Source: an uncultured Candidatus Saccharibacteria bacterium
GTDB taxonomy: Bacteria > Patescibacteriota > Minisyncoccia > Phycocordibacterales > UBA1006
Length of the DNA stretch: 64,000 nt
Reading direction: 5' to 3'
NCBI GenBank assembly: GCA_964592365.1
Contig: CAZQDL010000002.1
Coordinates: 86,139 to 150,138, forward strand
This document shows, one piece after another, positions 15,999-59,467 of the stretch (position 1 is its first letter; every line of letters starts with the position of its first letter). A model generated the notes under the pieces. It did no database searches, was not told the origin of the DNA, and was given only the letters and a program-made list of their open reading frames with translations. The position numbers and the translations under genes were made by a program.

Positions 15999-17063
15999 AT
16001 GGCAAACCGACAACTGCACCGAACCGTACTATTACAAACACTTTTTGAATGGGATATACGTGGAAAGAATAGTCTTGAAATTCCTCTGTACCTTTCATAC
16101 ATATCAACTGCATTTAATGAAATTCATGATGCTGATCAAAAGGAACTTTCAATGTTCCTTCAAGAGCTCATGAAAAAACAGGTAGTTATTGATGACATTA
16201 TTGAAAAAGCAGCCCCATCATGGCCACTTGAAAAAATTTCCATTACTGATCGTAATGTACTTCGACTTGGATTATATGAACTGTTGTTTGGAGACAGGGA
16301 ACAGGTACCACCTAAGGTTGCAATAAATGAATCTATTGAATTAGCAAAACGCTTTGGAGGTCCAAAGAGTGGAAGATTCGTAAATGGAATTATCGGTGCT
16401 GTGTATAAAGAAATTGGTGAACCTGGAAAAGAAGATTTCGTAAATCAAAAAGTTCAATCTGTTTCATATGAAGATATGCCTATCGAACAAAAAGGTGCTG
16501 CTGTTGTGTACAGTATTGATGCACAGGGAGTTATTAGAATTGGAATGGTGCATGATGTTTTTGGGTATTGGACCCTATCAAAAGGGAGTATCGGAGAACA
16601 AGAAGCTGTAACTGATGGTGTTATTCGAAAGATAAAAGAAGAAACAAATTGGGATATAGAAATCATTGCTGATTTAGGTGATAACGAGTACATCGCATAT
16701 CCACCTGAAAAAGGACCAACACGAAAACATGTTCATTATTTTCTTGCGAAATCACCATACGTTAATCCTACCTTAGGATCACAATCAGGTGGATTAAATG
16801 ATGTTCGTTGGTTTGAACTATCAGAGATCACTGACCTAACCATCTATGATGATGTTTCTCAAATGCTTATCAAATCAATTGGACTCATTAGTGAAAAAGA
16901 AGGAAGAATAGAAAAATTAGGAGCAACAGCACCAAACCTTTCACAGCCTGATATTGATAGTATGAATAGAGATCAACTCGAAGTTCTTGCGCGATCAAGA
17001 GGAGTTGAGGAAACTGAAACTATGGATGATATAACCTTAAAAACTAAGTTACGAGAATCATAA
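15999..17063 (+). CDS. nusB: NusB-domain / Nudix-like-domain fusion protein with Rho_N/SAP-like C-terminal tail
   Basis: N-terminal ~135 aa: R..LLQTLFEWD...PPKVAINESIELAKRFGGPKSGRFVNGIIGAV = NusB fold motifs. Central region YWTLSKGSIGEQEAVTDGVIRKIKEETNW fits the Nudix box Gx5Ex7REUxEExGU (RK..EE present). C-terminal SMNRDQLEVLARSRGVEETETMDDITLKTKL resembles a Rho-N/SAP-like helix-extended-helix. TGgTACAAT 6 nt upstream of ATG. Confidence 0.7.
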   Translation: MANRQLHRTVLLQTLFEWDIRGKNSLEIPLYLSYISTAFNEIHDADQKELSMFLQELMKKQVVIDDIIEKAAPSWPLEKISITDRNVLRLGLYELLFGDREQVPPKVAINESIELAKRFGGPKSGRFVNGIIGAVYKEIGEPGKEDFVNQKVQSVSYEDMPIEQKGAAVVYSIDAQGVIRIGMVHDVFGYWTLSKGSIGEQEAVTDGVIRKIKEETNWDIEIIADLGDNEYIAYPPEKGPTRKHVHYFLAKSPYVNPTLGSQSGGLNDVRWFELSEITDLTIYDDVSQMLIKSIGLISEKEGRIEKLGATAPNLSQPDIDSMNRDQLEVLARSRGVEETETMDDITLKTKLRES

Positions 17064-17751: not shown

Positions 17752-17809
17752 TTATTATGGCTTTTTTCTATATATCAACTCATGATTGTGATATACTAGA
17801 ATATTATAT

Positions 17810-20017
17810 ATGCATCTTAAACGATTAGAACTTAACGGTTTTAAGTCATTCGCTCATACTAGTGAATTTGTTTTTGATGTCCCTATCATTGCTATTGTAG
17901 GACCAAATGGATCTGGAAAATCAAATGTGGTTGAAGCTATTCGATTTGTGTTAGGAGAACAGTCAGTGAAATCAATGAGAGGGAAGACTGGATCGGATTT
18001 GATTTTCAAGGGATCAAAAGACATATCAAAAATGTCTCGTGCACGAGTGTCAATTACTTTTGATAACAAAAATCGAGTTTTCTATATCAATCAAGGTGAC
18101 ACCAAAGAAATTAGTGTAGACTTCGATGAGGTGACCATCGGAAGAGAAGTTTTTTCAGATGGAAGTAGTGTATATCGAATTAATGGTACTGAAGTGAGAA
18201 TGAAAGATATCCATGAACTTATCGCTTCTATTAACATTGGTTCTTCAGGGCACCATATTATCTCTCAAGGAGAAGCTGATCGATATTTAAATGCAAATGC
18301 AAGAGATCGTCGTACATTAATCGAAGAAGCACTTGGTTTAAAGGTGTATCAATATCGATTAAAAGAATCATTACGAAAGTTAAAGAAAGCAGAAGAAAAT
18401 CTAAGAGAAACTGAATTGTTAAGAAGAGAGATTGCCCCACACATTCGTTTCCTTAAAAAACAGGTTGAAAAAATACAACGAGCTAAAGAGCTACGAGTTA
18501 TTCTTGAAGAACAGTACCTTGATTATCTCAAACGAGAAGATTTTTATATAAAACATCTTCAAAAAACTTTGCAGCAACAAGAGGAAATTCTTCTTGAAGA
18601 AAAGAGAGAGGTTGATATTTATCTTGCTTCTCATCAGCAACAAACAGTAGAGCAGATTTCAGAGGAAAAAGATTTAATGGATGTTGAAAGAAAACTTTCA
18701 GGTATTAGACAGCAAAAACAAGAATACCTAAGAGAGATTGGCCGACTTGAAGGAATGATTTCAGTGTTGCAAAAACCAAAGCAAACTTCGGTGAATAAGC
18801 AGTTTTCGTACCAAAGAATTGTAACATTCAAAGAAGAGATTCAGGGTATTATAAATACTCTTAACCGTACTGATATCAGTTCACTTACTCATTTCCTCTC
18901 TATTCTTTCTGAAAAATTAGATCATCTCATCGGAGAGCATACAGAAGAAACTATCCATGAAGATACCTCGCTTCAGGAATTCCTAGCAAAGGAGAGTCTT
19001 TTGAGAGAATCACTTTCTGATATTTCTCTTCAAGAAGATGGCTTGATAAAAGAAATTGTAGGAATTCAAGAAGTAATTTCTAAAAAAAGAATCAAGCAAC
19101 AAGAAGAACAGAGAGAATTCTTCATCATGCAATCAAGGAAAAAGGAACTTGATGGAAAACAAGAACTTCTCCATTCGAAAAAACAATCACTTCTTCATCG
19201 TATTGCTGATCGTGATTTAGAATATCAAGAAGCTCTTGTTTTATTAGGATTAAATCAACTTGAAATACAAGAAACTGATTTCAATGAGGTAACTACAGAA
19301 TCTCAAACACAGTTAAGAAGAGAACTTGAACGTAACAAGATTCGTCTTGAAGACATGGGTGGAGGAACTGGAATAGAAACAGTTAAAGAATATGAGGAAA
19401 CAGTACAGCGGGATGAATTTTTGTCGAAAGAAATTGATGATGTACAAACCACTATTACTTCCTTAAATCAGATCATTAATGAATTAAAGGGAACCTTAAA
19501 TATTGAATTCAATGCTGGAGTAGAAAAAATTAATATTCAATTCAATAACTTCTTTACCCTTATGTTTGGTGGAGGAAAGGCTGTGCTAAAAGAGGTTATT
19601 ATGAAAAAGAAAAAGTCACCAGAAGAAGAATTTGATACTTCTGAAGACGAAAACCAAGAAGAGTATGGTATTGATATTGCTGTAGAGCTACCTCGAAAGA
19701 AAGTATCTGATCTTGATATGCTCTCAGGAGGAGAACGATCATTAACATCAATTGCTTTGCTTTTTGCACTGTCTCAAGTAAATCCACCACCTTTTTTGGT
19801 ACTTGATGAAACTGATGCTGCCTTAGATGAAGCAAATAGTCAAAAGTATGGTGATATGATTGAATCACTATCAGCATATTCACAACTTATTTTAGTTACG
19901 CATAACAGAGAAACCATGAGTAGAGCACAGACACTATTTGGAGTTACGCTTGGTCGGGATGATGCATCAACAATGCTTTCGCTTCGATTAGAGGATGCAG
20001 AAAAGTATGCGAAATAA
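17810..20017 (+). CDS. smc: SMC-family chromosome-segregation ATPase, unusually short (735 aa), no recognisable hinge
   Basis: N-terminus MHLKRLELNGFKSFAHTSEFVF...IVGPNGSGKSNVVEAIRFVLGEQS is a textbook SMC head; C-terminus LSGGERSLTSIALLFAL...LVLDETDAALD carries the signature motif and Walker B. Middle ~400 aa are coiled-coil-like with no glycine-rich hinge. rnc-smc synteny as in B. subtilis. Confidence 0.75.
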   Translation: MHLKRLELNGFKSFAHTSEFVFDVPIIAIVGPNGSGKSNVVEAIRFVLGEQSVKSMRGKTGSDLIFKGSKDISKMSRARVSITFDNKNRVFYINQGDTKEISVDFDEVTIGREVFSDGSSVYRINGTEVRMKDIHELIASINIGSSGHHIISQGEADRYLNANARDRRTLIEEALGLKVYQYRLKESLRKLKKAEENLRETELLRREIAPHIRFLKKQVEKIQRAKELRVILEEQYLDYLKREDFYIKHLQKTLQQQEEILLEEKREVDIYLASHQQQTVEQISEEKDLMDVERKLSGIRQQKQEYLREIGRLEGMISVLQKPKQTSVNKQFSYQRIVTFKEEIQGIINTLNRTDISSLTHFLSILSEKLDHLIGEHTEETIHEDTSLQEFLAKESLLRESLSDISLQEDGLIKEIVGIQEVISKKRIKQQEEQREFFIMQSRKKELDGKQELLHSKKQSLLHRIADRDLEYQEALVLLGLNQLEIQETDFNEVTTESQTQLRRELERNKIRLEDMGGGTGIETVKEYEETVQRDEFLSKEIDDVQTTITSLNQIINELKGTLNIEFNAGVEKINIQFNNFFTLMFGGGKAVLKEVIMKKKKSPEEEFDTSEDENQEEYGIDIAVELPRKKVSDLDMLSGGERSLTSIALLFALSQVNPPPFLVLDETDAALDEANSQKYGDMIESLSAYSQLILVTHNRETMSRAQTLFGVTLGRDDASTMLSLRLEDAEKYAK

Positions 20018-38624: not shown

Positions 38625-38627
38625 TTG

Positions 38628-38701
38628 TACGCCCAGAGGGATTCGAACCCCCAACTTCCGAGGAATAAGCTCGGCACTCTAGCCAATTGAGTTATAGGCG
38701 C
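38628..38701 (-). tRNA. tRNA, anticodon apparently UAU (Ile/AUA) with unusual U37 and two G-U pairs in the acceptor stem
   Basis: Minus-strand read gcgccua-u-a-acuc-aauuggcua-gagu-g-ccgag-cuUAUuc-cucgg-aaguu-ggggg-UUCGAAU-cccuc-ugggcgu-a (73 nt; CCA not encoded). Perfect anticodon stem; 7-nt loop c-u-U-A-U-u-c. Confidence 0.55.
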
Positions 38702-41815: not shown

Positions 41816-41824
41816 TGATATAAT
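41816..41824 (+). promoter_or_regulatory. extended -10 TGATATAAT 8 nt upstream of pilin-3 ATG
   Basis: Same element as before pilins 1 and 2. Confidence 0.55.
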
Positions 41825-41832
41825 TCAGCTAT

Positions 41833-41997
41833 ATGAAATCAAAAGGATTCACCCTCATTGAACTATTGGTAGTAGTTGCCATTATTGGAATACTTGCAAC
41901 TGTGGTATTAGCTAGTCTAAGTTCTGGTCGAGCATCAGCACGAGATGCACGACGTTTAGCTGATATTAAAACCATTCAGACAGCACTTGAGTTATAT
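41833..41997 (+). repeat. ~165-bp near-identical direct repeat (5' end of pilin-3), copy A
   Basis: The first ~165 nt of genes 41833 and 43126 differ at one position (cagaca vs caaaca) by direct comparison. Confidence 0.8.
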
Positions 41998-42354
41998 AAT
42001 ACCGAAAATGGTAAATATCCTACGACAGCTTGGGCTGTAGGAGATCAACCTTCTTGGACTACCTTAGAAAACATTTTAGGAGTTAATTTACCTGATGACC
42101 CACTAAACACGAACACAAACAACGTATCAAATGCAGCTACGGCAGGAGATTACATGTATGCATATTTTGCAAATAATGACACTGGCTTCTGCTTTGGAAG
42201 AGCTTATATGATTGTTGCTAACTTTGAAACTAAAATTGATACTTCTCCAGGGGTAAGATTCTGTAATAATGCTACTTTTGGATACGGTAACTCAATTGTA
42301 GTTGGTGTTAATGACAGAGGAGAATTTATTGGTCCTACTTTAACAAAAAAGTAA
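41833..42354 (+). CDS. type IV pilin-like protein, paralog 3
   Basis: [55 protein letters not shown]...; two C-terminal Cys. Confidence 0.85.
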   Translation: MKSKGFTLIELLVVVAIIGILATVVLASLSSGRASARDARRLADIKTIQTALELYNTENGKYPTTAWAVGDQPSWTTLENILGVNLPDDPLNTNTNNVSNAATAGDYMYAYFANNDTGFCFGRAYMIVANFETKIDTSPGVRFCNNATFGYGNSIVVGVNDRGEFIGPTLTKK

Positions 42355-43042: not shown

Positions 43043-43125
43043 GGTAGATATAGTATATCATTTCTTTTCTTGTTTCTTGATCAGCACTTTAAATAGACAG
43101 CCATGTATAGTAATATACTAAGTAT

Positions 43126-43290
43126 ATGAAATCAAAAGGATTCACCCTCATTGAACTATTGGTAGTAGTTGCCATTATTGGAATACTTGCAACTGTGGTA
43201 TTAGCTAGTCTAAGTTCTGGTCGAGCATCAGCACGAGATGCACGACGTTTAGCTGATATTAAAACCATTCAAACAGCACTTGAGTTATAT
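43126..43290 (+). repeat. ~165-bp near-identical direct repeat (5' end of pilin-4), copy B
   Basis: See copy A; the two copies flank recR. Confidence 0.8.
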
Positions 43291-43650
43291 GCTCTTGATA
43301 ACGGAGGACAATATCCTACCCCAGGTTGGGCAAGTAGCAACGTTGCAAGCTCCTGGGCAGCTTTAGAAACTCAATTAGGAACCACCTTACCTAAAGACCC
43401 TACTAATCAAACGAGTACGAGTACCTCTTCTGTCACCACAGGTTTGTATACCTATGGATATTACGCACATGCTCAGGCTGCACAATGCTCAGGAAGAGCA
43501 TATATGCTTGTTGTAAATCTTGAAACTAAAAGAGATACTTCTGCTGGTGTATACTTATGTGATACAACTCGTGGATATGGTGATGCTCTTGTTGTTGGTA
43601 TGGATGGAAATGGAAATTTAATTGGACCAGGTACCTTAACTAACAAGTAA
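43126..43650 (+). CDS. type IV pilin-like protein, paralog 4
   Basis: N-terminal 55 aa identical to paralog 3; C-terminal CSGRAYMLVVNLETKRDTSAGVYLCDTTRGYG parallels paralog 3 CFGRAYMIVANFETKIDTSPGVRFCNNATFGYG. Confidence 0.85.
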   Translation: MKSKGFTLIELLVVVAIIGILATVVLASLSSGRASARDARRLADIKTIQTALELYALDNGGQYPTPGWASSNVASSWAALETQLGTTLPKDPTNQTSTSTSSVTTGLYTYGYYAHAQAAQCSGRAYMLVVNLETKRDTSAGVYLCDTTRGYGDALVVGMDGNGNLIGPGTLTNK

Positions 43651-45047: not shown

Positions 45048-45145
45048 GTCTCAAATCTTATCACGATACTCCATGTTATGCTTTTGTTAGGTGTACAACT
45101 TATGTGTATAGTCATGTGGAATACGGTATGTGATATACTAATTAC

Positions 45146-46942
45146 ATGTCATCTGATCAAAAAGTTACCTATTTCGGGGTTACTGATTTTAGGAATAATA
45201 GAACAAAATTTGGAATCAAGAATATTGATCGATCTCGTCATGTCTATGTGATAGGGAAGACAGGTATGGGAAAATCAACTCTCCTTGAAAACATGGCAGC
45301 ACAAGACATTCTCAATGGAGAAGGAATGTGTTTTGTTGATCCTCATGGTTCTGCAATTGATACTTTGCTACAGTATGTTCCTGAACATCGAATCAACGAT
45401 GTAGTATATTTTGCTCCCTTTGATACCGACTTCCCAATTACCTTTAACGTAATGGAAGATGTTGGTGTAGATAAACGGCATTTGGTGGTAAATGGCCTTA
45501 TGGCTTCATTTAAAAAAATATGGCAAGACGCATGGTCTGCGCGAATGGAGTATATCCTTACCAACACCTTACTTGCTTTACTTGAATACCCTGGTTCAAC
45601 CCTTCTTGGGGTAAACAGAATGCTTGCTGAAAAAGAGTATAGAAATGAAGTGGTGAAGCATGTGACTGATGCTTCTGTACGATCTTTTTGGATTGATGAG
45701 TATGGAAAATGGGATCCTCGATATGCAAAAGAGGCAGGGGCTGCAATTCAAAACAAGATTGGACAATTCACAGCAAATCCATTAATTAGGAATATTATCG
45801 GACAAGAACAATCATCGTTTGATATTCGAAAGGTAATGGATGAACGAAAAATATTGTTAGTAAATCTTTCTAAAGGAAGAATTGGAGAACAAAATGCAAA
45901 ACTATTAGGAGGAATGCTTATTACTAAAATATATTTAGCTGCAATGAGTCGCGCTGAAGTTGGAGCTTCTAATCTTTCTCAACTACCTAATTTCTTTTTC
46001 TTTGTGGACGAGTTTCAGAACTTCGCAACAGAGTCTTTCGCAGACATTCTATCAGAAGCAAGAAAGTATAAGTTAAACCTTACTATTGCACACCAATATG
46101 TTGCACAGATGCAAGAAGAGGTAAAAGACGCAGTGGTGGGTAACGTTGGAACGATGATAACTTTCAGGATTGGAGCAGAAGATGCTGAATTATTTGAAAA
46201 ACAATTCGCTCCAGTATTTACCGCAGAAGATATTGTAAATCTTGGGAAGTTTCAAATATATCTTTCACTAATGATTGATGGAATTGGTTCACGACCATTT
46301 TCTGCAGAAACCATGTCTCCTATCGAAAAGCCAAGAGTGAGCTTGGTACGCGAGGTAATAGAGGCATCACGAGCTAAATACGCACAATCAAGAGTTCTTG
46401 TAGAACAGGATATTGCTAAATGGTATGAACCAATAACAAAACCAGAAAAGAGAAGTATTAATGGTACTAATACAGGAACACAGAAGCCACAAGTCTCAGC
46501 TGAACCAGTTGTGAAGAAAACATTCATCGTTGCAAAAGAAAGAGATACTTCAGGTCCTTTTAAAAAGGCATTGAAAGAACTTGATGAAAAAGAAGCGGAG
46601 CTTGAAATGAAAAAAATAGTTTCCCCACGTTTGAATACTCTTCTTGAAAAACTTGATGGAAAAAAGGAGGTGCTTGGAACAACAACAAAGATACCTGAGG
46701 TTATCAAGAATATTAAAAAGAATGATTCATATGCAACTTCTACACAAAAAAGTGATAGAGCAGCTGACAAAAGTACAAAATCATCCTTACAAGACGCATT
46801 AGCTCGAGCATTAGCTGAAAATAAGCAGAAGGTAGAGAAAAATATTCCTAAGGTGAACATCCCTCAAGAAAAAGAGGAAAATGTTAATGTAAATCAAAAA
46901 AAGGAGATTCCTGAAGATGTACTGAGAGATATTTTAAATTAG
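45146..46942 (+). CDS. TraD/TraG/VirD4-family (HerA/FtsK superfamily) P-loop ATPase, soluble, with K/E-rich C-terminal tail
   Basis: Walker A VIGKTGMGKSTLLEN, then CFVDPHGSAID (vfDPkG-like), Walker B FFFFVDEFQNF, and EARKYKLNLTIAHQYVAQM (TraG-D_C-like RkyGi.l.lA.Q..sQl). No N-terminal TM helices. TGTGATATACT 9 nt upstream of ATG. Confidence 0.6.
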   Translation: MSSDQKVTYFGVTDFRNNRTKFGIKNIDRSRHVYVIGKTGMGKSTLLENMAAQDILNGEGMCFVDPHGSAIDTLLQYVPEHRINDVVYFAPFDTDFPITFNVMEDVGVDKRHLVVNGLMASFKKIWQDAWSARMEYILTNTLLALLEYPGSTLLGVNRMLAEKEYRNEVVKHVTDASVRSFWIDEYGKWDPRYAKEAGAAIQNKIGQFTANPLIRNIIGQEQSSFDIRKVMDERKILLVNLSKGRIGEQNAKLLGGMLITKIYLAAMSRAEVGASNLSQLPNFFFFVDEFQNFATESFADILSEARKYKLNLTIAHQYVAQMQEEVKDAVVGNVGTMITFRIGAEDAELFEKQFAPVFTAEDIVNLGKFQIYLSLMIDGIGSRPFSAETMSPIEKPRVSLVREVIEASRAKYAQSRVLVEQDIAKWYEPITKPEKRSINGTNTGTQKPQVSAEPVVKKTFIVAKERDTSGPFKKALKELDEKEAELEMKKIVSPRLNTLLEKLDGKKEVLGTTTKIPEVIKNIKKNDSYATSTQKSDRAADKSTKSSLQDALARALAENKQKVEKNIPKVNIPQEKEENVNVNQKKEIPEDVLRDILN

Positions 46943-46954
46943 CTTAATGCTGTA

Positions 46955-48286
46955 TTGATAAAAACGAATGATATGTATTTCATTCGTTTTTGTTTTCTCT
47001 TAGTTATTTTTCTACCAACACTTGCACATGCACAATTTTCTATTACAGAAATTATGTATGATGCAGAGGGAACAGATACAGGAAATGAATGGGTGGAGGT
47101 GAAAAATACTTCCAATCAGGAACATGATTTTTCAAAGTGGTACTTTAGAGAAAATGAAGTGGATCATAGGTTAACATCATTTGGATCTGAACTTATACAA
47201 CCAGGAGAATATGCCATTATTATCTCAAACCAAGAAAACTTCGAAGCCGCATTTGGTGCAAATCACCAATTATTCAAAAGTTCATTTTCTTTGAATAATA
47301 CAGGAGAGTTAATTGCACTAAGAAATCCAGAGAAAGAATTAGTGACACAATATTTATATTCTTCAGATAGTGGGGCAGCAGGGGATGGAAATAGTCTTCA
47401 ATATAATGGAACAACTTTTGTTTCGAGATCTCCAAGCCCCTCTGAAGATATCAATAATCAACAGGAACAAACAAATACTACAGAATCAGGAACTACATCA
47501 AAAACAACAAGTACACGTTCACAGGAAAAAGAATTCATTCCATACTATGAAGCACATATACAAGTAGACGAAACTATCCTTGCTGGGAATCAGACAACAA
47601 TACGCCCCTTGGTATATCATCATAAAGAAAGAGAAGTATCTCATGTAAAAATAAGAGGTGTGTATTTATTAAATATGGGTGATGGTACCCAACATATATA
47701 TGATGAACGTATGGAGTTTGATCATATATATCAATCTCCTGGAACATATATTCAAAGTCTTGCTTTCTATTCAAGTTCCTTCAGATATGAACAGCAAGAA
47801 CAACCAACATTGATATATACTCAATTGATCACCGTATATCAACCAGATGTATCAATATCAGCTAATGAATTTGGAGGATTGGAAATTGCTAATATGCAAA
47901 ATCATCCACTTGATGTCTCAGGGTGGAAGATTACTCACCCTCTTGGATCCTTTGAATTTCCTTCATATAGCTACATTACTCAAAAGGCTTCCATTTCAAT
48001 TCCATATCATATCCTTGGTGCTTACGTTACAAGTGAAATCATTCATGACATTGATATATGGAACCATGATAATTACTCTGTGGTTGCTAAAGAAGAAGTT
48101 CAAGAACCAATCCAGAAAATTGAAAAAGTCGAAGAAGTAATTGTAAGGGAAGAAGTGACTCTTCCTGAAGCTAAGGATGAAGATACTAATCAATATCCCT
48201 TCATCGTTGGTTTTATTATCTCAACTCTTATCATCGCAGGTGTACGTTACTACAAGAAAAATATTGAAAAAGAACCTATTGGATAG
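46955..48286 (+). CDS. secreted lamin-tail-domain (LTD) protein with C-terminal membrane anchor
   Basis: Signal peptide then FSITEIMYDAEGTDTGNEWVEVKNTSNQEHDFSKWYF...IQPGEYAIII...NNTGELIALRNPEKELVTQY = canonical LTD; a second LTD-like segment (SANEFGGLEIANMQNHPLDVSGWKITH); C-terminal TM FIVGFIISTLIIAGV. 12 nt after the ATPase gene. Confidence 0.8.
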   Translation: MIKTNDMYFIRFCFLLVIFLPTLAHAQFSITEIMYDAEGTDTGNEWVEVKNTSNQEHDFSKWYFRENEVDHRLTSFGSELIQPGEYAIIISNQENFEAAFGANHQLFKSSFSLNNTGELIALRNPEKELVTQYLYSSDSGAAGDGNSLQYNGTTFVSRSPSPSEDINNQQEQTNTTESGTTSKTTSTRSQEKEFIPYYEAHIQVDETILAGNQTTIRPLVYHHKEREVSHVKIRGVYLLNMGDGTQHIYDERMEFDHIYQSPGTYIQSLAFYSSSFRYEQQEQPTLIYTQLITVYQPDVSISANEFGGLEIANMQNHPLDVSGWKITHPLGSFEFPSYSYITQKASISIPYHILGAYVTSEIIHDIDIWNHDNYSVVAKEEVQEPIQKIEKVEEVIVREEVTLPEAKDEDTNQYPFIVGFIISTLIIAGVRYYKKNIEKEPIG

Positions 48287-49388
48287 GTTCTTTTTCAACA
48301 ACTTGTTGTTCTTTTGATTTGTTAACAAGATCTGACTTTCTTTCAAGCATTATTTCAAGAGCTGCCAATGCTTGTGAATATTCTCTAGCTGCGACATGTG
48401 AGCTAATGTTTTTACGAAGGGTAGAGAACTCAAGAGCAAGTTCTTCAGTTATTGATAATTTATTAAACTCAATATTTATCTTCTCAATCTTGTCCTCAAG
48501 AAGAACAATACTTTCAAGAATTCTAATATTCTGTTGGTATCTAAGATCTTCATCAGAAACAATTTCTTTAACGATAGGTTTTTCTTCTGTATTTGAAGCA
48601 GTTTGTTCTTTCGTATCAATATCCTTTTGAACGTTGAGGGAAACAATTTCAGTTTCTTTAATATCTGCTTCGATAGCATCAAGAAGAATATTTTTTTCTT
48701 CAATAACAGCGACAGCTTTAGCTACAGGGATAGCATCACTAGCGGGAACCATAGTAGCACTAAAAGCGCTTACATCAGCAGACACAATCTCTTCTTCAAC
48801 TGATGTAAGGGCTATTGCTAGATGTTCTTCCTTACTAGTTACATCTTTAAGTTTTTGTACATTCTCTTCAAGAGATACCATCAATTGATTATTTAGCTCA
48901 AGTGCCTTTTGAGGATCTTGTATTTTAATTTCTTGAATAGTTTCTTGCGCTTTATCAGTATGCTTTTGAATGTTCTGTGCAATGATTACTTGCTCAGCGT
49001 CATCAAGTTTATCTCTAGAAGAAAGTTCTGCAGCTTCTTGGATTCTCTTTTCTGCTCGTTTTATTTCGTAACTGATTTTCTTTTCAGGACTTTGCTTGGT
49101 AACCGCTCGTATTTCTTCGTGAATTATCTTAACAGGGTAGAGAAATTCTCCAGGAAGTGCTCCTGCTGATGCTGGTTGTGAAATTGATCCCACAACTAAT
49201 ACCGCGATTACCGCAATACTGAAGATTCTATGAAATGAAAACACCAAGGGAGCATATGGGCTTTTTTGTGATGATTGATATGTATGAGTAAAAGCCAACA
49301 GATTTTTCTGTATGGTTTCCTTTTCTGAATCACTCATCTTAATTGACATGAGATTATCTATGAGATTGTTTATTTTAGATTTATCCAT
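48276..49388 (-). CDS. anti-sigma-factor-like membrane protein (DUF5667-type extracytoplasmic helical domain)
   Basis: Short cytoplasmic N-terminus, one TM (IFSIAVIAVLVVGSI), long helical ectodomain; start ATGGATAAA overlaps the stop of the sigma gene. ORF track start 49499; ATG 49388 or 49406. Confidence 0.55.
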   Translation of the reverse strand: MDKSKINNLIDNLMSIKMSDSEKETIQKNLLAFTHTYQSSQKSPYAPLVFSFHRIFSIAVIAVLVVGSISQPASAGALPGEFLYPVKIIHEEIRAVTKQSPEKKISYEIKRAEKRIQEAAELSSRDKLDDAEQVIIAQNIQKHTDKAQETIQEIKIQDPQKALELNNQLMVSLEENVQKLKDVTSKEEHLAIALTSVEEEIVSADVSAFSATMVPASDAIPVAKAVAVIEEKNILLDAIEADIKETEIVSLNVQKDIDTKEQTASNTEEKPIVKEIVSDEDLRYQQNIRILESIVLLEDKIEKINIEFNKLSITEELALEFSTLRKNISSHVAAREYSQALAALEIMLERKSDLVNKSKEQQVVEKEPIQ

Positions 49389-49902
49389 GGTTCGTAATGA
49401 GCTCATTGAGCTTTTTAAGTCCTCGATGAAGGTATACAGAAACAATTTTACTATCACGGTTAACGATTGCAGCAATTTCAGAAACTGAAAAATCTTCAAG
49501 AAATCGAAGAGTTACAATTTCTCTAGTTACCTCAGGTAGCTGTCCAAGAAGTTGCATGGCAAGTTGTCCATCAATGACATCTTCCATCCGCTTTTGAGGG
49601 TTATCTTCTAGATGTTGTTCGATTGGTTCATCAGTATAATTATCAATTTGAATATCTTTTTTCTTACGATACCCATCGATGATAAGGTTATTCGCCATTC
49701 TATATAAGAGTGCACGATGATTTACTATCTCTCTTCCATCAACAAGATACGACCAGAATTTCATAAATGATTCTTGTGTAATATCCAATGAAGTATCCCT
49801 GTTCCTTGTCTTTATCATGCAGAAACGAAAAATATCATCACTGTATTTTTCATAATAATGCATGAATGCTTCGTTATGTGATTGTAAATGGTCATTTCTC
49901 AT
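49381..49902 (-). CDS. ECF (group IV) sigma-70 factor
   Basis: Region 2 (HNEAFMHYYEKYSDDIFRFCMIKTRNRDTSLDITQESFMKFW) and region 4 (REIVTLRFLEDFSVSEIAAIVNRDSKIVSVYLHRGLKKL). ORF track start 49944; ATG MRNDHLQ likely. Confidence 0.8.
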   Translation of the reverse strand: MRNDHLQSHNEAFMHYYEKYSDDIFRFCMIKTRNRDTSLDITQESFMKFWSYLVDGREIVNHRALLYRMANNLIIDGYRKKKDIQIDNYTDEPIEQHLEDNPQKRMEDVIDGQLAMQLLGQLPEVTREIVTLRFLEDFSVSEIAAIVNRDSKIVSVYLHRGLKKLNELITNHG

Positions 49903-49994
49903 AGTATATGACGTTTGATACCTTATATTATTACACTTATCCAAAAGCTTGAACAGGGTGGTAAAGGTATATTTTTTTGATACGATGTATCTAT

Positions 49995-58825: not shown

Positions 58826-59467
58826 TCAATTTAAATTGAAGTAGTTGATAATGTCCTTGCCTGAACATATTGCAACAGCACCTTCTGTGATAAGTTTGTT
58901 ACAACCTGCTGAATATTTGCTGAAGATGGATCCAGGAACAGCAAGTACTTCGCGATTGTAGTCATAGGCAAGATCTGCTGTAATTTTTGATCCTGATTTA
59001 TCTTCTGCTTCTATCACGAGTACTGCATGTGATATACCTGCCATGATTCTGTTTCGTTTTGGAAAACTCCAACGTTTAGGTGTAAACATATAATCATATT
59101 CGGAAATAAGGCATCCGCCTTTCTTTACAATATTTTGAGCAAGCATCCTGTTTGAAGGAGGGTACAGTACTTCTTCTGAAAGTCCTGATCCTAAAACAGC
59201 TATCGTTGGAAGACCATATTCAAGTGCATAGGTGTGTGCATAGGTGTCAATTCCTACAGCTAAACCAGAGACAATAACAACAGGATAATCCTTTAATTCT
59301 TTGATAATAGTACGGCATACCTCTTTGCCATAATTTGTTGCATTTCTTGACCCAACAATAGTAAGAAAAAGATGATGTTCTTGATCAGGATAGGTACCAT
59401 TTATATATATCTTTTTAGGTAAATCAGGTATTTCCTGAAGTAATTTTGGTATATGAATTTGCTGCAT
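58826..59467 (-). CDS. dprA: DNA processing protein DprA/Smf (Rossmann-fold core only, 213 aa)
   Basis: TIVGSRNATNYGKEVCRTIIKEL...VIVSGLAVGIDTYAHTYAL matches the DprA core GSR.....G...A......G..vvSGlA.GID..AH. Confidence 0.85.
   Translation of the reverse strand: MQQIHIPKLLQEIPDLPKKIYINGTYPDQEHHLFLTIVGSRNATNYGKEVCRTIIKELKDYPVVIVSGLAVGIDTYAHTYALEYGLPTIAVLGSGLSEEVLYPPSNRMLAQNIVKKGGCLISEYDYMFTPKRWSFPKRNRIMAGISHAVLVIEAEDKSGSKITADLAYDYNREVLAVPGSIFSKYSAGCNKLITEGAVAICSGKDIINYFNLN

Follow-up and report, generated by a model that had tools for sequence, protein, structure and literature searches.

The stretch of DNA analysed here (the window: 64,000 nt of contig CAZQDL010000002.1, assembly GCA_964592365.1, from an uncultured Candidatus Saccharibacteria bacterium) carries, one directly after the other on its forward strand, a gene for an ATPase of the type IV coupling protein (T4CP) type and a gene for a surface-anchored protein that combines a lamin-tail domain (LTD) with a PKD-type Ig-like domain. 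The ATPase has no transmembrane (TM) segment, and comparison with its relatives leads us to read it as the motor half of a coupling protein that has been split from its membrane half, the Pfam domain DUF8128. Close homologues of the genes studied come from Patescibacteria (the Candidate Phyla Radiation, CPR), mostly from metagenome-assembled genomes of the Paceibacteria type. Handles such as L106 denote individual loci from other genomes, and coordinates in the window are collected in Table 1.

An ATPase and a surface-anchored protein encoded side by side

The open reading frame (ORF) of the ATPase cannot be extended upstream, and every motif that the initial annotation had listed is present in its translation: a Walker A motif, GKTGMGKST, at residues 37-45 (45254-45280), DPHG at residues 65-68, a Walker B motif, FFFFVDEF, at residues 283-290 (45992-46018), the TraG-D_C-like segment EARKYKLNLTIAHQ at residues 304-317, and a K/E-rich tail that begins at about residue 430. 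Judged by its translation, the catalytic motifs are intact. Two Pfam families match above their cut-offs, TrwB_AAD_bind (PF10412; 30.8 bits against 20.5) and TraG-D_C (PF12696; 27.7 bits against 22), which bears out the proposed assignment to the T4CP/HerA-FtsK superfamily, and the protein has the T4CP fold, including the inserted all-alpha domain. It scores below the cut-off of every named NCBIfam T4CP family (SXT TraD, CD1115 VirD4-like, TOL TraD), the best scores being 45.5, 36.8 and 33.9 bits against cut-offs of 366, 250 and 648. No stretch of 19 residues reaches a hydropathy of 1.6 and the protein is thus without a TM-like segment; only 36 residues precede Walker A, and the N-terminal membrane domain is missing from the polypeptide. 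The last 13 residues of the tail, KEIPEDVLRDILN (46901-46939), are kept in both clades of the ATPase tree described below, and the C-termini in L001-L080 give the consensus KE(V/I)PEDVL(R/K)xIL for clades 1 and 2.

The family to which this ATPase belongs is large, with at least 8,000 clusters at 90% identity in a homologue search and 5,889 representatives at E<=1e-30. Its core has more than 130 invariant columns across 34 sequences, in all of which the T4CP signature motifs are invariant. Outside the Patescibacteria, tblastn aligns the ATPase with an 812-aa T4CP of an Embleya plasmid at 28% identity (E 8e-47), the gene cluster of which is annotated with a PrgI family protein, an ATP-binding protein, a replication-relaxation protein and NlpC/P60. 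The match to PHROG 5156 (4e-55) leads to Bacillus phage G gp156, which adjoins a VirB-like gene; another relative, gp91 of phage CP-51, adjoins a nicking Rep. The closest relative found in the plasmid collection is a TM-less 395-aa homologue on Sulfitobacter mediterraneus plasmid NZ_CP081110.1 (L166, 7995-9182), 40% identical to the ATPase core and situated amid transposase and recombinase genes. As an observation in its own right, the neighbourhoods in the two large Bacillus phages (gp155-gp156 of G, L164; gp91-gp90 of CP-51, L165), where a DUF8128-type T4CP adjoins a VirB-like protein or a nicking replication initiator, look like a conjugation-like module in phage genomes.

Within its own phylum, the window ATPase is one of the T4CP homologues known from ∼96% of Patescibacteria genomes. 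In the survey by Quinonero-Coronel et al. (2025), 5,713 such copies are counted in 2,918 of 3,035 genomes, of which just 148 lie near virB4, a gene present in 2,417 genomes or 80% (PMC12102498). The same source gives the T4CP homologue of S. epibionticum as non-essential and its type IV secretion system (T4SS) as essential (PMC12102498; see also PMC10633639), and its authors write of the phylum's T4CP homologues that exaptation 'cannot be ruled out' (PMC12102498).

Could the ATPase instead be a component of an anti-phage defence system, as a HerA-, MADS- or Dnd-DptH-like enzyme? PADLOC reports a match to mad8 (1.4e-19) and weak matches to HerA models (3e-9 at best), and a Bradyrhizobium homologue is found among CHAT and TPR genes. 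We treat the mad8 match as probably not MADS-specific, because the MADS profiles come from alignments of HHpred hits against PDB structures. Clustering with defence-associated HerA proteins, an outcome that the initial annotation had considered, was not seen: the Embleya T4CP is matched at E 8e-47, against 3e-9 for the best HerA model. Furthermore, no effector, methyltransferase or nuclease lies beside the window ATPase or among the recurrent neighbours in the loci, and the gene is single-copy and highly conserved, with T4CP homologues in nearly all genomes of the phylum, unlike the content of defence islands. We therefore reject a defence role as very improbable.

The second gene encodes the surface protein. 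Its maximal ORF opens at a TTG 12 nt past the ATPase stop, the spacing originally given, yet the real start is probably the ATG at 46973, because an identical database protein (P0121) is 437 aa long; the gap is then 30 nt. An AlphaFold2 model (AF2; mean predicted local distance difference test score, pLDDT, 81.6) has a signal helix at the N-terminus and a helix at residues 416-437, and the order of parts is signal peptide, LTD, a low-complexity linker rich in S, T, N and Q, PKD domain, short LTD-like domain, TM helix. The first LTD passes its Pfam cut-off clearly (72.1 bits against 34.3), and Foldseek matches lamin tail structures. For the PKD domain, the window copy scores below threshold with Pfam (PF00801/PF18911; 17.1 bits against 23.5) while homologues pass, and Foldseek superposes the modelled middle domain on the ColG PKD domain with a TM-score of 0.73. 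In the homologue of L169 there are two Pfam LTD stretches and a PKD domain. The proposal of a secreted, TM-anchored, LTD-bearing protein is thus supported, whereas its description as a double LTD protein needs amending: both LTD-type domains are there, with a PKD domain in between. We describe the protein, on the strength of the model, as a Sec-exported stalk of three Ig-like domains that a C-terminal TM helix would hold on the cell surface. Foldseek returned Ig-like arrays, lamin tails and PKD domains only, and no enzyme; neither Pfam nor Foldseek gave a nuclease or known DNA-binding domain.

Most of the TM-anchored homologues (L001-L163) have a cytoplasmic tail of 12-30 residues that ends in (F/Y/I/W)-x-(I/L)-(I/L/V)-(D/E), as in DFKIIE or GEIELIE. 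More distant LTD-PKD homologues lie elsewhere in the genome, and several of these are without a TM anchor in the alignment.

Table 1. Features of the ATPase/LTD region of the window
Feature	Position	Strand	Remarks
Extended -10 promoter-like box, TGATATACT	45131-45139	+	6 nt before ATPase ATG; promoter function inferred from sequence
TM-less T4CP-type ATPase gene	45146-46942	+	598 aa, ATG start; read as motor half of a split coupling protein
Conserved ATPase core, P-loop nucleotide-binding domain	45146-46435	+	aa 1-430
All-alpha domain inserted in the nucleotide-binding domain	45467-45841	+	aa 108-232
Disordered K/E/P-rich ATPase tail with short conserved motifs	46436-46939	+	pLDDT <50 over most of the tail
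Surface-anchored LTD-PKD-LTD-like protein gene	46955-48286	+	443 aa from TTG; probable start ATG 46973
AT-rich 15-bp hairpin	46957-46994	+	perfect; likely LTD gene start ATG 46973 in the loop
Lamin-tail domain	47027-47434	+	aa 25-160; Pfam LTD (PF00932) 5.9e-20 over aa 25-135
PKD-type Ig-like domain	47543-47839	+	aa 197-295; S/T/N/Q-rich linker ahead
Short LTD-like beta domain	47849-48064	+	aa 299-370; hhalign against family LTD, probability 89.7%, E 1.8e-6
C-terminal TM helix	48200-48265	+	aa 416-437, AF2 helix; 6-residue tail after it
Convergent genes for anti-sigma-like (DUF5667) protein and ECF-type sigma factor	48276-49944	-	Pfam

Coupling proteins split from their membrane domain

Among the best 150 cluster representatives of the ATPase family, many are 750-1100 aa long and contain the same core, mostly at 43-55% identity. 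In these long forms the core begins at about residue 240-460, after an N-terminal membrane domain that precomputed Pfam annotations assign to DUF8128 (PF26449) and that consists of one TM helix and a domain of ∼350 aa. The related proteins with this N-terminal part, ∼400 aa in all, share 46-55% identity with the window ATPase in the core. Homologous N-termini are present in the T4CPs of the actinomycete (Embleya) plasmid and of the Bacillus phages G and CP-51. In L106, DUF8128 is a gene of its own (1470-2639) that ends in a TAA stop; the ATPase gene starts 24 nt further on, and its product begins at the point equivalent to the start of the window protein. Stand-alone DUF8128 genes are very common in Patescibacteria: a search gave 1,299 homologues, and the best 120 are without exception stand-alone proteins of 320-430 aa. 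Eight loci with a DUF8128 gene were examined, and in five of them the ATPase follows, directly in L106, L169 and L170, past an IS/kinase insertion in L174, and in fragmented form in L175; in the other three (L171, L172, L173) YceG is encoded downstream and no ATPase gene lies nearby. A gene containing sigma70_r4 is found directly upstream of DUF8128 in all eight loci, with a HARE-HTH match in seven. The full order DUF8128, ATPase, LTD gene occurs in L106 and L169.

The ends of these proteins differ. In five long forms, the sequences of which we read, the KE(V/I)PEDVL(R/K)xIL end is missing. The ATPases that adjoin DUF8128 end instead in (I/V)(L/M)(K/R)PGD(T/K)(I/L)x(F/L), for example ILKPGDTIRF, and carry a treble-clef zinc finger in their tails, which Pfam detects in L169, L170 and L174 and which is recognised by sequence reading in L106.

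From these comparisons, the reading that suits the window ATPase best is that of a coupling protein's motor half, split from the rest. The initial annotation had called it soluble, and this stands as far as the absence of a TM segment is concerned; the better explanation is gene fission, since the DUF8128 half is fused in the long forms and encoded by a separate, adjacent gene in relatives, among them some Paceibacteria. It is this that we regard as new, namely that the ATPase is half of a split protein, with DUF8128 as the missing half and a conserved LTD-PKD neighbour. In those parts of the literature accessible to us we found no mention of DUF8128, the split, the missing membrane domain or the LTD-PKD neighbour, nor anything relevant on the LTD in CPR bacteria.

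An ATPase without a TM segment could equally be pictured as a cytoplasmic translocase of chromosomal DNA, SftA- or HerA-like, that acts in segregation or repair and has no relation to the envelope. The window ATPase does lie near dnaB, recR and recG, and in L174 recA lies two genes past the ATPase with a 109-aa ORF in between. Against such a role, dnaB adjoins the ATPase in just 10 of 80 loci, and the fused and split DUF8128 forms indicate membrane association. The Pfam family FtsK_SpoIIIE is matched only at E 0.08 and no FtsK gamma-domain family is among the Pfam matches of the ATPase; with Walker A starting as early as residue 37, there is no room for an N-terminal HerA barrel. We consider this role quite unlikely. 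A related idea, that the ATPase replaces FtsK, we reject since canonical FtsK is present in related genomes.

Conservation, neighbourhoods and genomic setting

A neighbour-joining tree of the ATPases from 80 genome loci has two clades. In clade 1 the LTD gene follows the ATPase directly in all 28 loci that could be assessed downstream, with a gap of 1-25 nt in most loci where the ORF call is clean. The upstream neighbour varies within the same clade (dnaB, an S1-domain gene, a small membrane protein, a histidine kinase and others), amounting to at least five changes, and the adjacency of ATPase and LTD gene persists down to 22-25% identity of the LTD protein. In the reciprocal test, the LTD family was searched against metagenomes: of 67 assessable loci, 49 have the ATPase immediately before the LTD gene, and in two others it lies ∼3 kb upstream. 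The expectation that the pair would be conserved in relatives is borne out within this lineage, though not for the sister clade, which has no LTD gene at this place. The pair is old and persistent in one large lineage and is not obligatory for the ATPase. ATPase and LTD gene have remained together across a deep radiation of Paceibacteria, lineages that keep DUF8128 directly upstream included.

Beyond the LTD gene, genes for a DUF5667 anti-sigma protein and a sigma factor of the extracytoplasmic function (ECF) type adjoin the pair in most clade-1 loci. Of the 80 loci, 21 have the anti-sigma gene and 22 the sigma gene, every one of them a member of clade 1; any connection with the ATPase/LTD pair is conjectural.

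The initial annotation had placed the two genes in a module for DNA uptake or the handling of surface polymers, in which the LTD protein would bind extracellular DNA and the ATPase would pull it in as part of a competence system. T4CPs are by family DNA-translocating motors. Two type IV pilin genes, at 41833-42354 and 43126-43650, do lie 1.5-3 kb upstream of the ATPase in the window, and five loci (L019, L060, L064, L068 and L031) have a type IV pilus cluster immediately ahead of the ATPase, made up of PilT, a response regulator, a further PilT, PilC and pilins. There is also room for another route of uptake, ComEC being reported as dispensable for the epibiotic growth of S. epibionticum (PMC12102498). 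Set against this, pilus adjacency is limited to 5-6 of ∼59 assessable loci, drawn from both ATPase clades; the LTD protein is a plain Ig-like array, and a single-pass anchor gives no channel. The dprA gene, likewise offered as competence context, is present (58826-59467, minus strand; identified by reading its translation) but sits 12 kb from the ATPase in its ordinary place beside topA. Com genes, which were not among the queries, were not conspicuous in the gene families that recur beside the ATPase in the loci inspected. With no com genes conspicuous among these neighbours, no nuclease domain on the LTD protein and a promoter motif that is found throughout the genome (see below), this reading is unsupported, and we consider it improbable.

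The promoter argument concerns the extended -10 box ahead of the ATPase, which had been assigned to a pilin/recG type. Matches to the TGATATACT motif with at most one mismatch number 56 in the window against 25 expected. The form TGnTATA(C/A)T lies 3-12 nt before several start codons, among them those of smc, both pilin genes, recR and the ATPase, at sites that include 17789-17797, 41816-41824, 43052-43060 (minus strand), 43111-43119 and 45131-45139, and related loci have the box as well, 5-8 nt ahead of the ATG. We reject a pilin/recG-type regulon, the motif being this genome's general extended -10 box. Because the box sits so few bases before start codons, it suggests that the ATPase transcript is leaderless or nearly so, and that leaderless transcription may be widespread in the genome. 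In the 30-nt spacer before the LTD gene no extended -10 box was seen; given this, the ATPase and LTD genes are likely to be co-transcribed.

The hairpin at the junction of the two genes is terminator-like, with a minimum free energy of -19.5 kcal/mol and a z-score of -5.0. A different, GC-rich hairpin occupies the same spacer in L031, L068 and L072, while most loci have none, and the mean z-score in relatives is -0.5. For all its strength in the window, the hairpin is not conserved, and we rejected the idea of a conserved attenuator. An Rfam scan of the ATPase/LTD region gave no match.

The wider window, with a GC content of ∼35%, is chromosomal DNA and not an obvious mobile element. It holds the housekeeping genes dnaK, dnaJ, thrS, dnaE, smc, RNase R, secA, ftsH, recG, recR, dnaB, ychF, RNase J, topA and dprA, together with one tmRNA and two tRNA genes. 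Pfam scans of the window ORFs found no virB4, relaxase or second T4CP; apart from the ATPase and the LTD gene, the ORFs scanned matched housekeeping or envelope families only, or nothing. Two VirB4-like tblastn queries gave no match in 1.63 Mb of sequence (the window and the loci), in a search of low sensitivity.

Some further features of the window deserve mention in their own right. The two pilin genes are identical in their first 55 encoded residues and diverged in the remainder, as would follow if the gene had been duplicated recently or its N-terminal half had undergone gene conversion. One of the tRNA genes, at 38627-38701 on the minus strand, encodes a tRNA-Ile with anticodon TAT, an uncommon bacterial way of reading AUA. 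The SMC-family protein (17810-20017) has just 735 aa, with Pfam SMC_N covering residues 2-719, and a typical bacterial SMC is much longer than this. A NusB domain and a NUDIX hydrolase domain are joined in one ORF (15999-17063).

Interpretation and comparison with known systems

With moderate confidence, we read the ATPase as the motor subunit of a T4CP whose membrane half has been split off, and the LTD-PKD protein as an extracellular accessory of the same apparatus. The ATPase would form an ATP-driven hexamer, held at the membrane by DUF8128 or another partner, and would feed a macromolecule, DNA or protein if T4CPs are a guide, into a conduit in the envelope. Adhesion, spanning of the wall or ligand binding are examples of what the LTD-PKD protein might do for this apparatus.

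A number of results weigh against this reading. A functional partnership of the two proteins is something we infer from gene order. In clade 2 (∼47 loci) the LTD gene is missing after the ATPase, and glycosyltransferases stand there instead, as far as can be told by reading the sequences: tandem GT4, GT2 or GT11 genes, or else a gene for a large polytopic membrane protein, lie downstream, with a secreted glycoside-hydrolase-like protein encoded upstream of the ATPase, and we read the clade-2 ATPase as probably lying in a cell-surface glycan locus. Conversely, some TM-anchored LTD-PKD genes have no ATPase gene as neighbour and stand next to a glycosyltransferase-like ORF or to ORFs resembling SecD or FtsW; in L123, L125 and L132 such a gene directly precedes a glycosyltransferase-like ORF of ∼720 aa. 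The ATPases that adjoin an LTD gene showed, as a group, no tail motif peculiar to them, and the tail motif of the LTD protein is lost in the window copy and its two closest relatives among those listed. DUF8128 was not found in the window by tblastn and the family HMM, nor in 162 other loci; an unlinked copy elsewhere in the genome is plausible, because in L171-L173 the DUF8128 gene has no ATPase gene near it. The ATPase occurs in long, split and short forms, and the neighbour-joining trees, with bootstrap values of ∼0 for the order of these forms, leave their branching order unresolved. Finally, a role in a classical T4SS is not secure, because the T4CP homologue of S. epibionticum is reported as non-essential and its T4SS as essential (PMC12102498).

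The main rival explanation is that the two proteins are neighbours by ancestry and not partners: the ATPase would serve a distant T4SS, and the LTD-PKD protein would be an independent, possibly glycosylated envelope protein, part of a surface-glycan locus, that shares its transcript through ancestry in compact genomes. In favour of this are the LTD-PKD genes without an ATPase, those located elsewhere in the genome, the clade-2 ATPases without an LTD gene, and L069 and L169, intermediates in which the order is ATPase, LTD gene, GT4. By sequence reading, the S/T-rich linker of the LTD protein is typical of glycosylated surface proteins. It is important to note that T4CP genes often lie far from virB4 and that most Patescibacteria genomes possess virB4 (PMC12102498). 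The survey also supplies two arguments to the contrary, in that T4CP homologues (96% of genomes) are more widespread than virB4 (80%), and that S. epibionticum can do without its T4CP homologue but not without its T4SS (PMC12102498). Moreover, the adjacency has outlived at least five upstream rearrangements and reaches down to 22-25% LTD identity, and it was recovered in both search directions. We consider mere neighbourhood less likely than not, and less probable than the partnership of a split coupling protein with an extracellular accessory.

Two more specific versions of a partnership were considered. In one, the LTD protein substitutes for the missing anchor of the ATPase. This is weakened by DUF8128 being the ancestral anchor, which co-occurs with the LTD gene in L106 and L169, and also by the want of an LTD-specific motif in the ATPase tail and by the LTD tail motif itself, which is missing in the window and is not significantly tied to ATPase adjacency (27 of 41 against 4 of 10). 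In the other, bolder version, DUF8128, the TM-less ATPase and the LTD-PKD-LTD protein would together make a minimal envelope-spanning device for transfer or uptake that works without a VirB4-type T4SS and is widespread in Paceibacteria. Its Ig-like stalk would capture an external macromolecule or contact a host cell, and the split coupling protein would power passage. If this were true, auxotrophic cells would have a route by which to gain DNA or nucleotides or to deliver cargo, ComEC being dispensable. We regard it as doubtful, only a shade less so than the competence module discussed above.

The systems closest to the ATPase are the monoderm (MPF-FATA-like) T4CPs of Embleya sp. NBC_00896 plasmid unnamed2 (WP_331738717.1) and of phages G (gp156) and CP-51 (gp91), which share its core at 27-28% identity (E 8e-47 and 3e-32). 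They carry the DUF8128-type N-terminus that is fused in the long forms related to the window ATPase and a separate gene in L106. Unlike these single polypeptides, the window ATPase is without the N-terminal half, has no DUF8128 in the window, and has gained a long disordered tail with a conserved end. The Embleya and phage genes adjoin an ATP-binding or VirB-like gene, PrgI and a relaxase or nickase gene, whereas no virB4 or relaxase was found near the window ATPase. The structurally characterised coupling proteins TrwB (R388), VirD4, TraD, DotL and Cagbeta are only ∼15% identical to it; the N-terminal membrane domain of two helices is missing here, and the scores lie below every NCBIfam T4CP cut-off. 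As regards HerA, mad8 of MADS and DptH, a HAS-barrel together with an effector (NurA, Sir2, DUF4297 or mad/dnd) was not found, the neighbours being dnaB and the LTD gene.

A precedent for a motor and an anchor in separate genes is TraJ of pIP501, a T4CP without a TM segment that is reportedly recruited by TraI, a membrane protein in its own right. TraJ and TraI are encoded on a conjugative plasmid inside a complete T4SS operon, unlike the split T4CP of the relatives studied here. For the surface protein, the analogy we draw is with bacterial LTD surface proteins and with PrgB. PrgB is an Ig-like adhesin of Gram-positive T4SSs, encoded beside transfer-machinery genes. Like it, the window LTD protein is a secreted, envelope-anchored Ig-like array, but there is no sequence relationship and no LPXTG, the window protein being anchored by a C-terminal TM helix. 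The survey reports that it found no PrgB-type adhesin in Patescibacteria (PMC12102498).

Patescibacteria account for a sizeable part of bacterial diversity and rely on other cells, and how macromolecules are transported across their envelope is an open question. The T4CP homologues of these bacteria, the description of which the window ATPase fits, could not be assigned a role in the survey (PMC12102498); the split seen in this lineage, the DUF8128 half and the surface-protein neighbour give this puzzle a concrete shape. Should the parts work together, machinery derived from conjugation would be arranged here in a new way; should they not, an annotation is still corrected, in that the ATPase is soluble by virtue of a gene split and is no new cytoplasmic enzyme.

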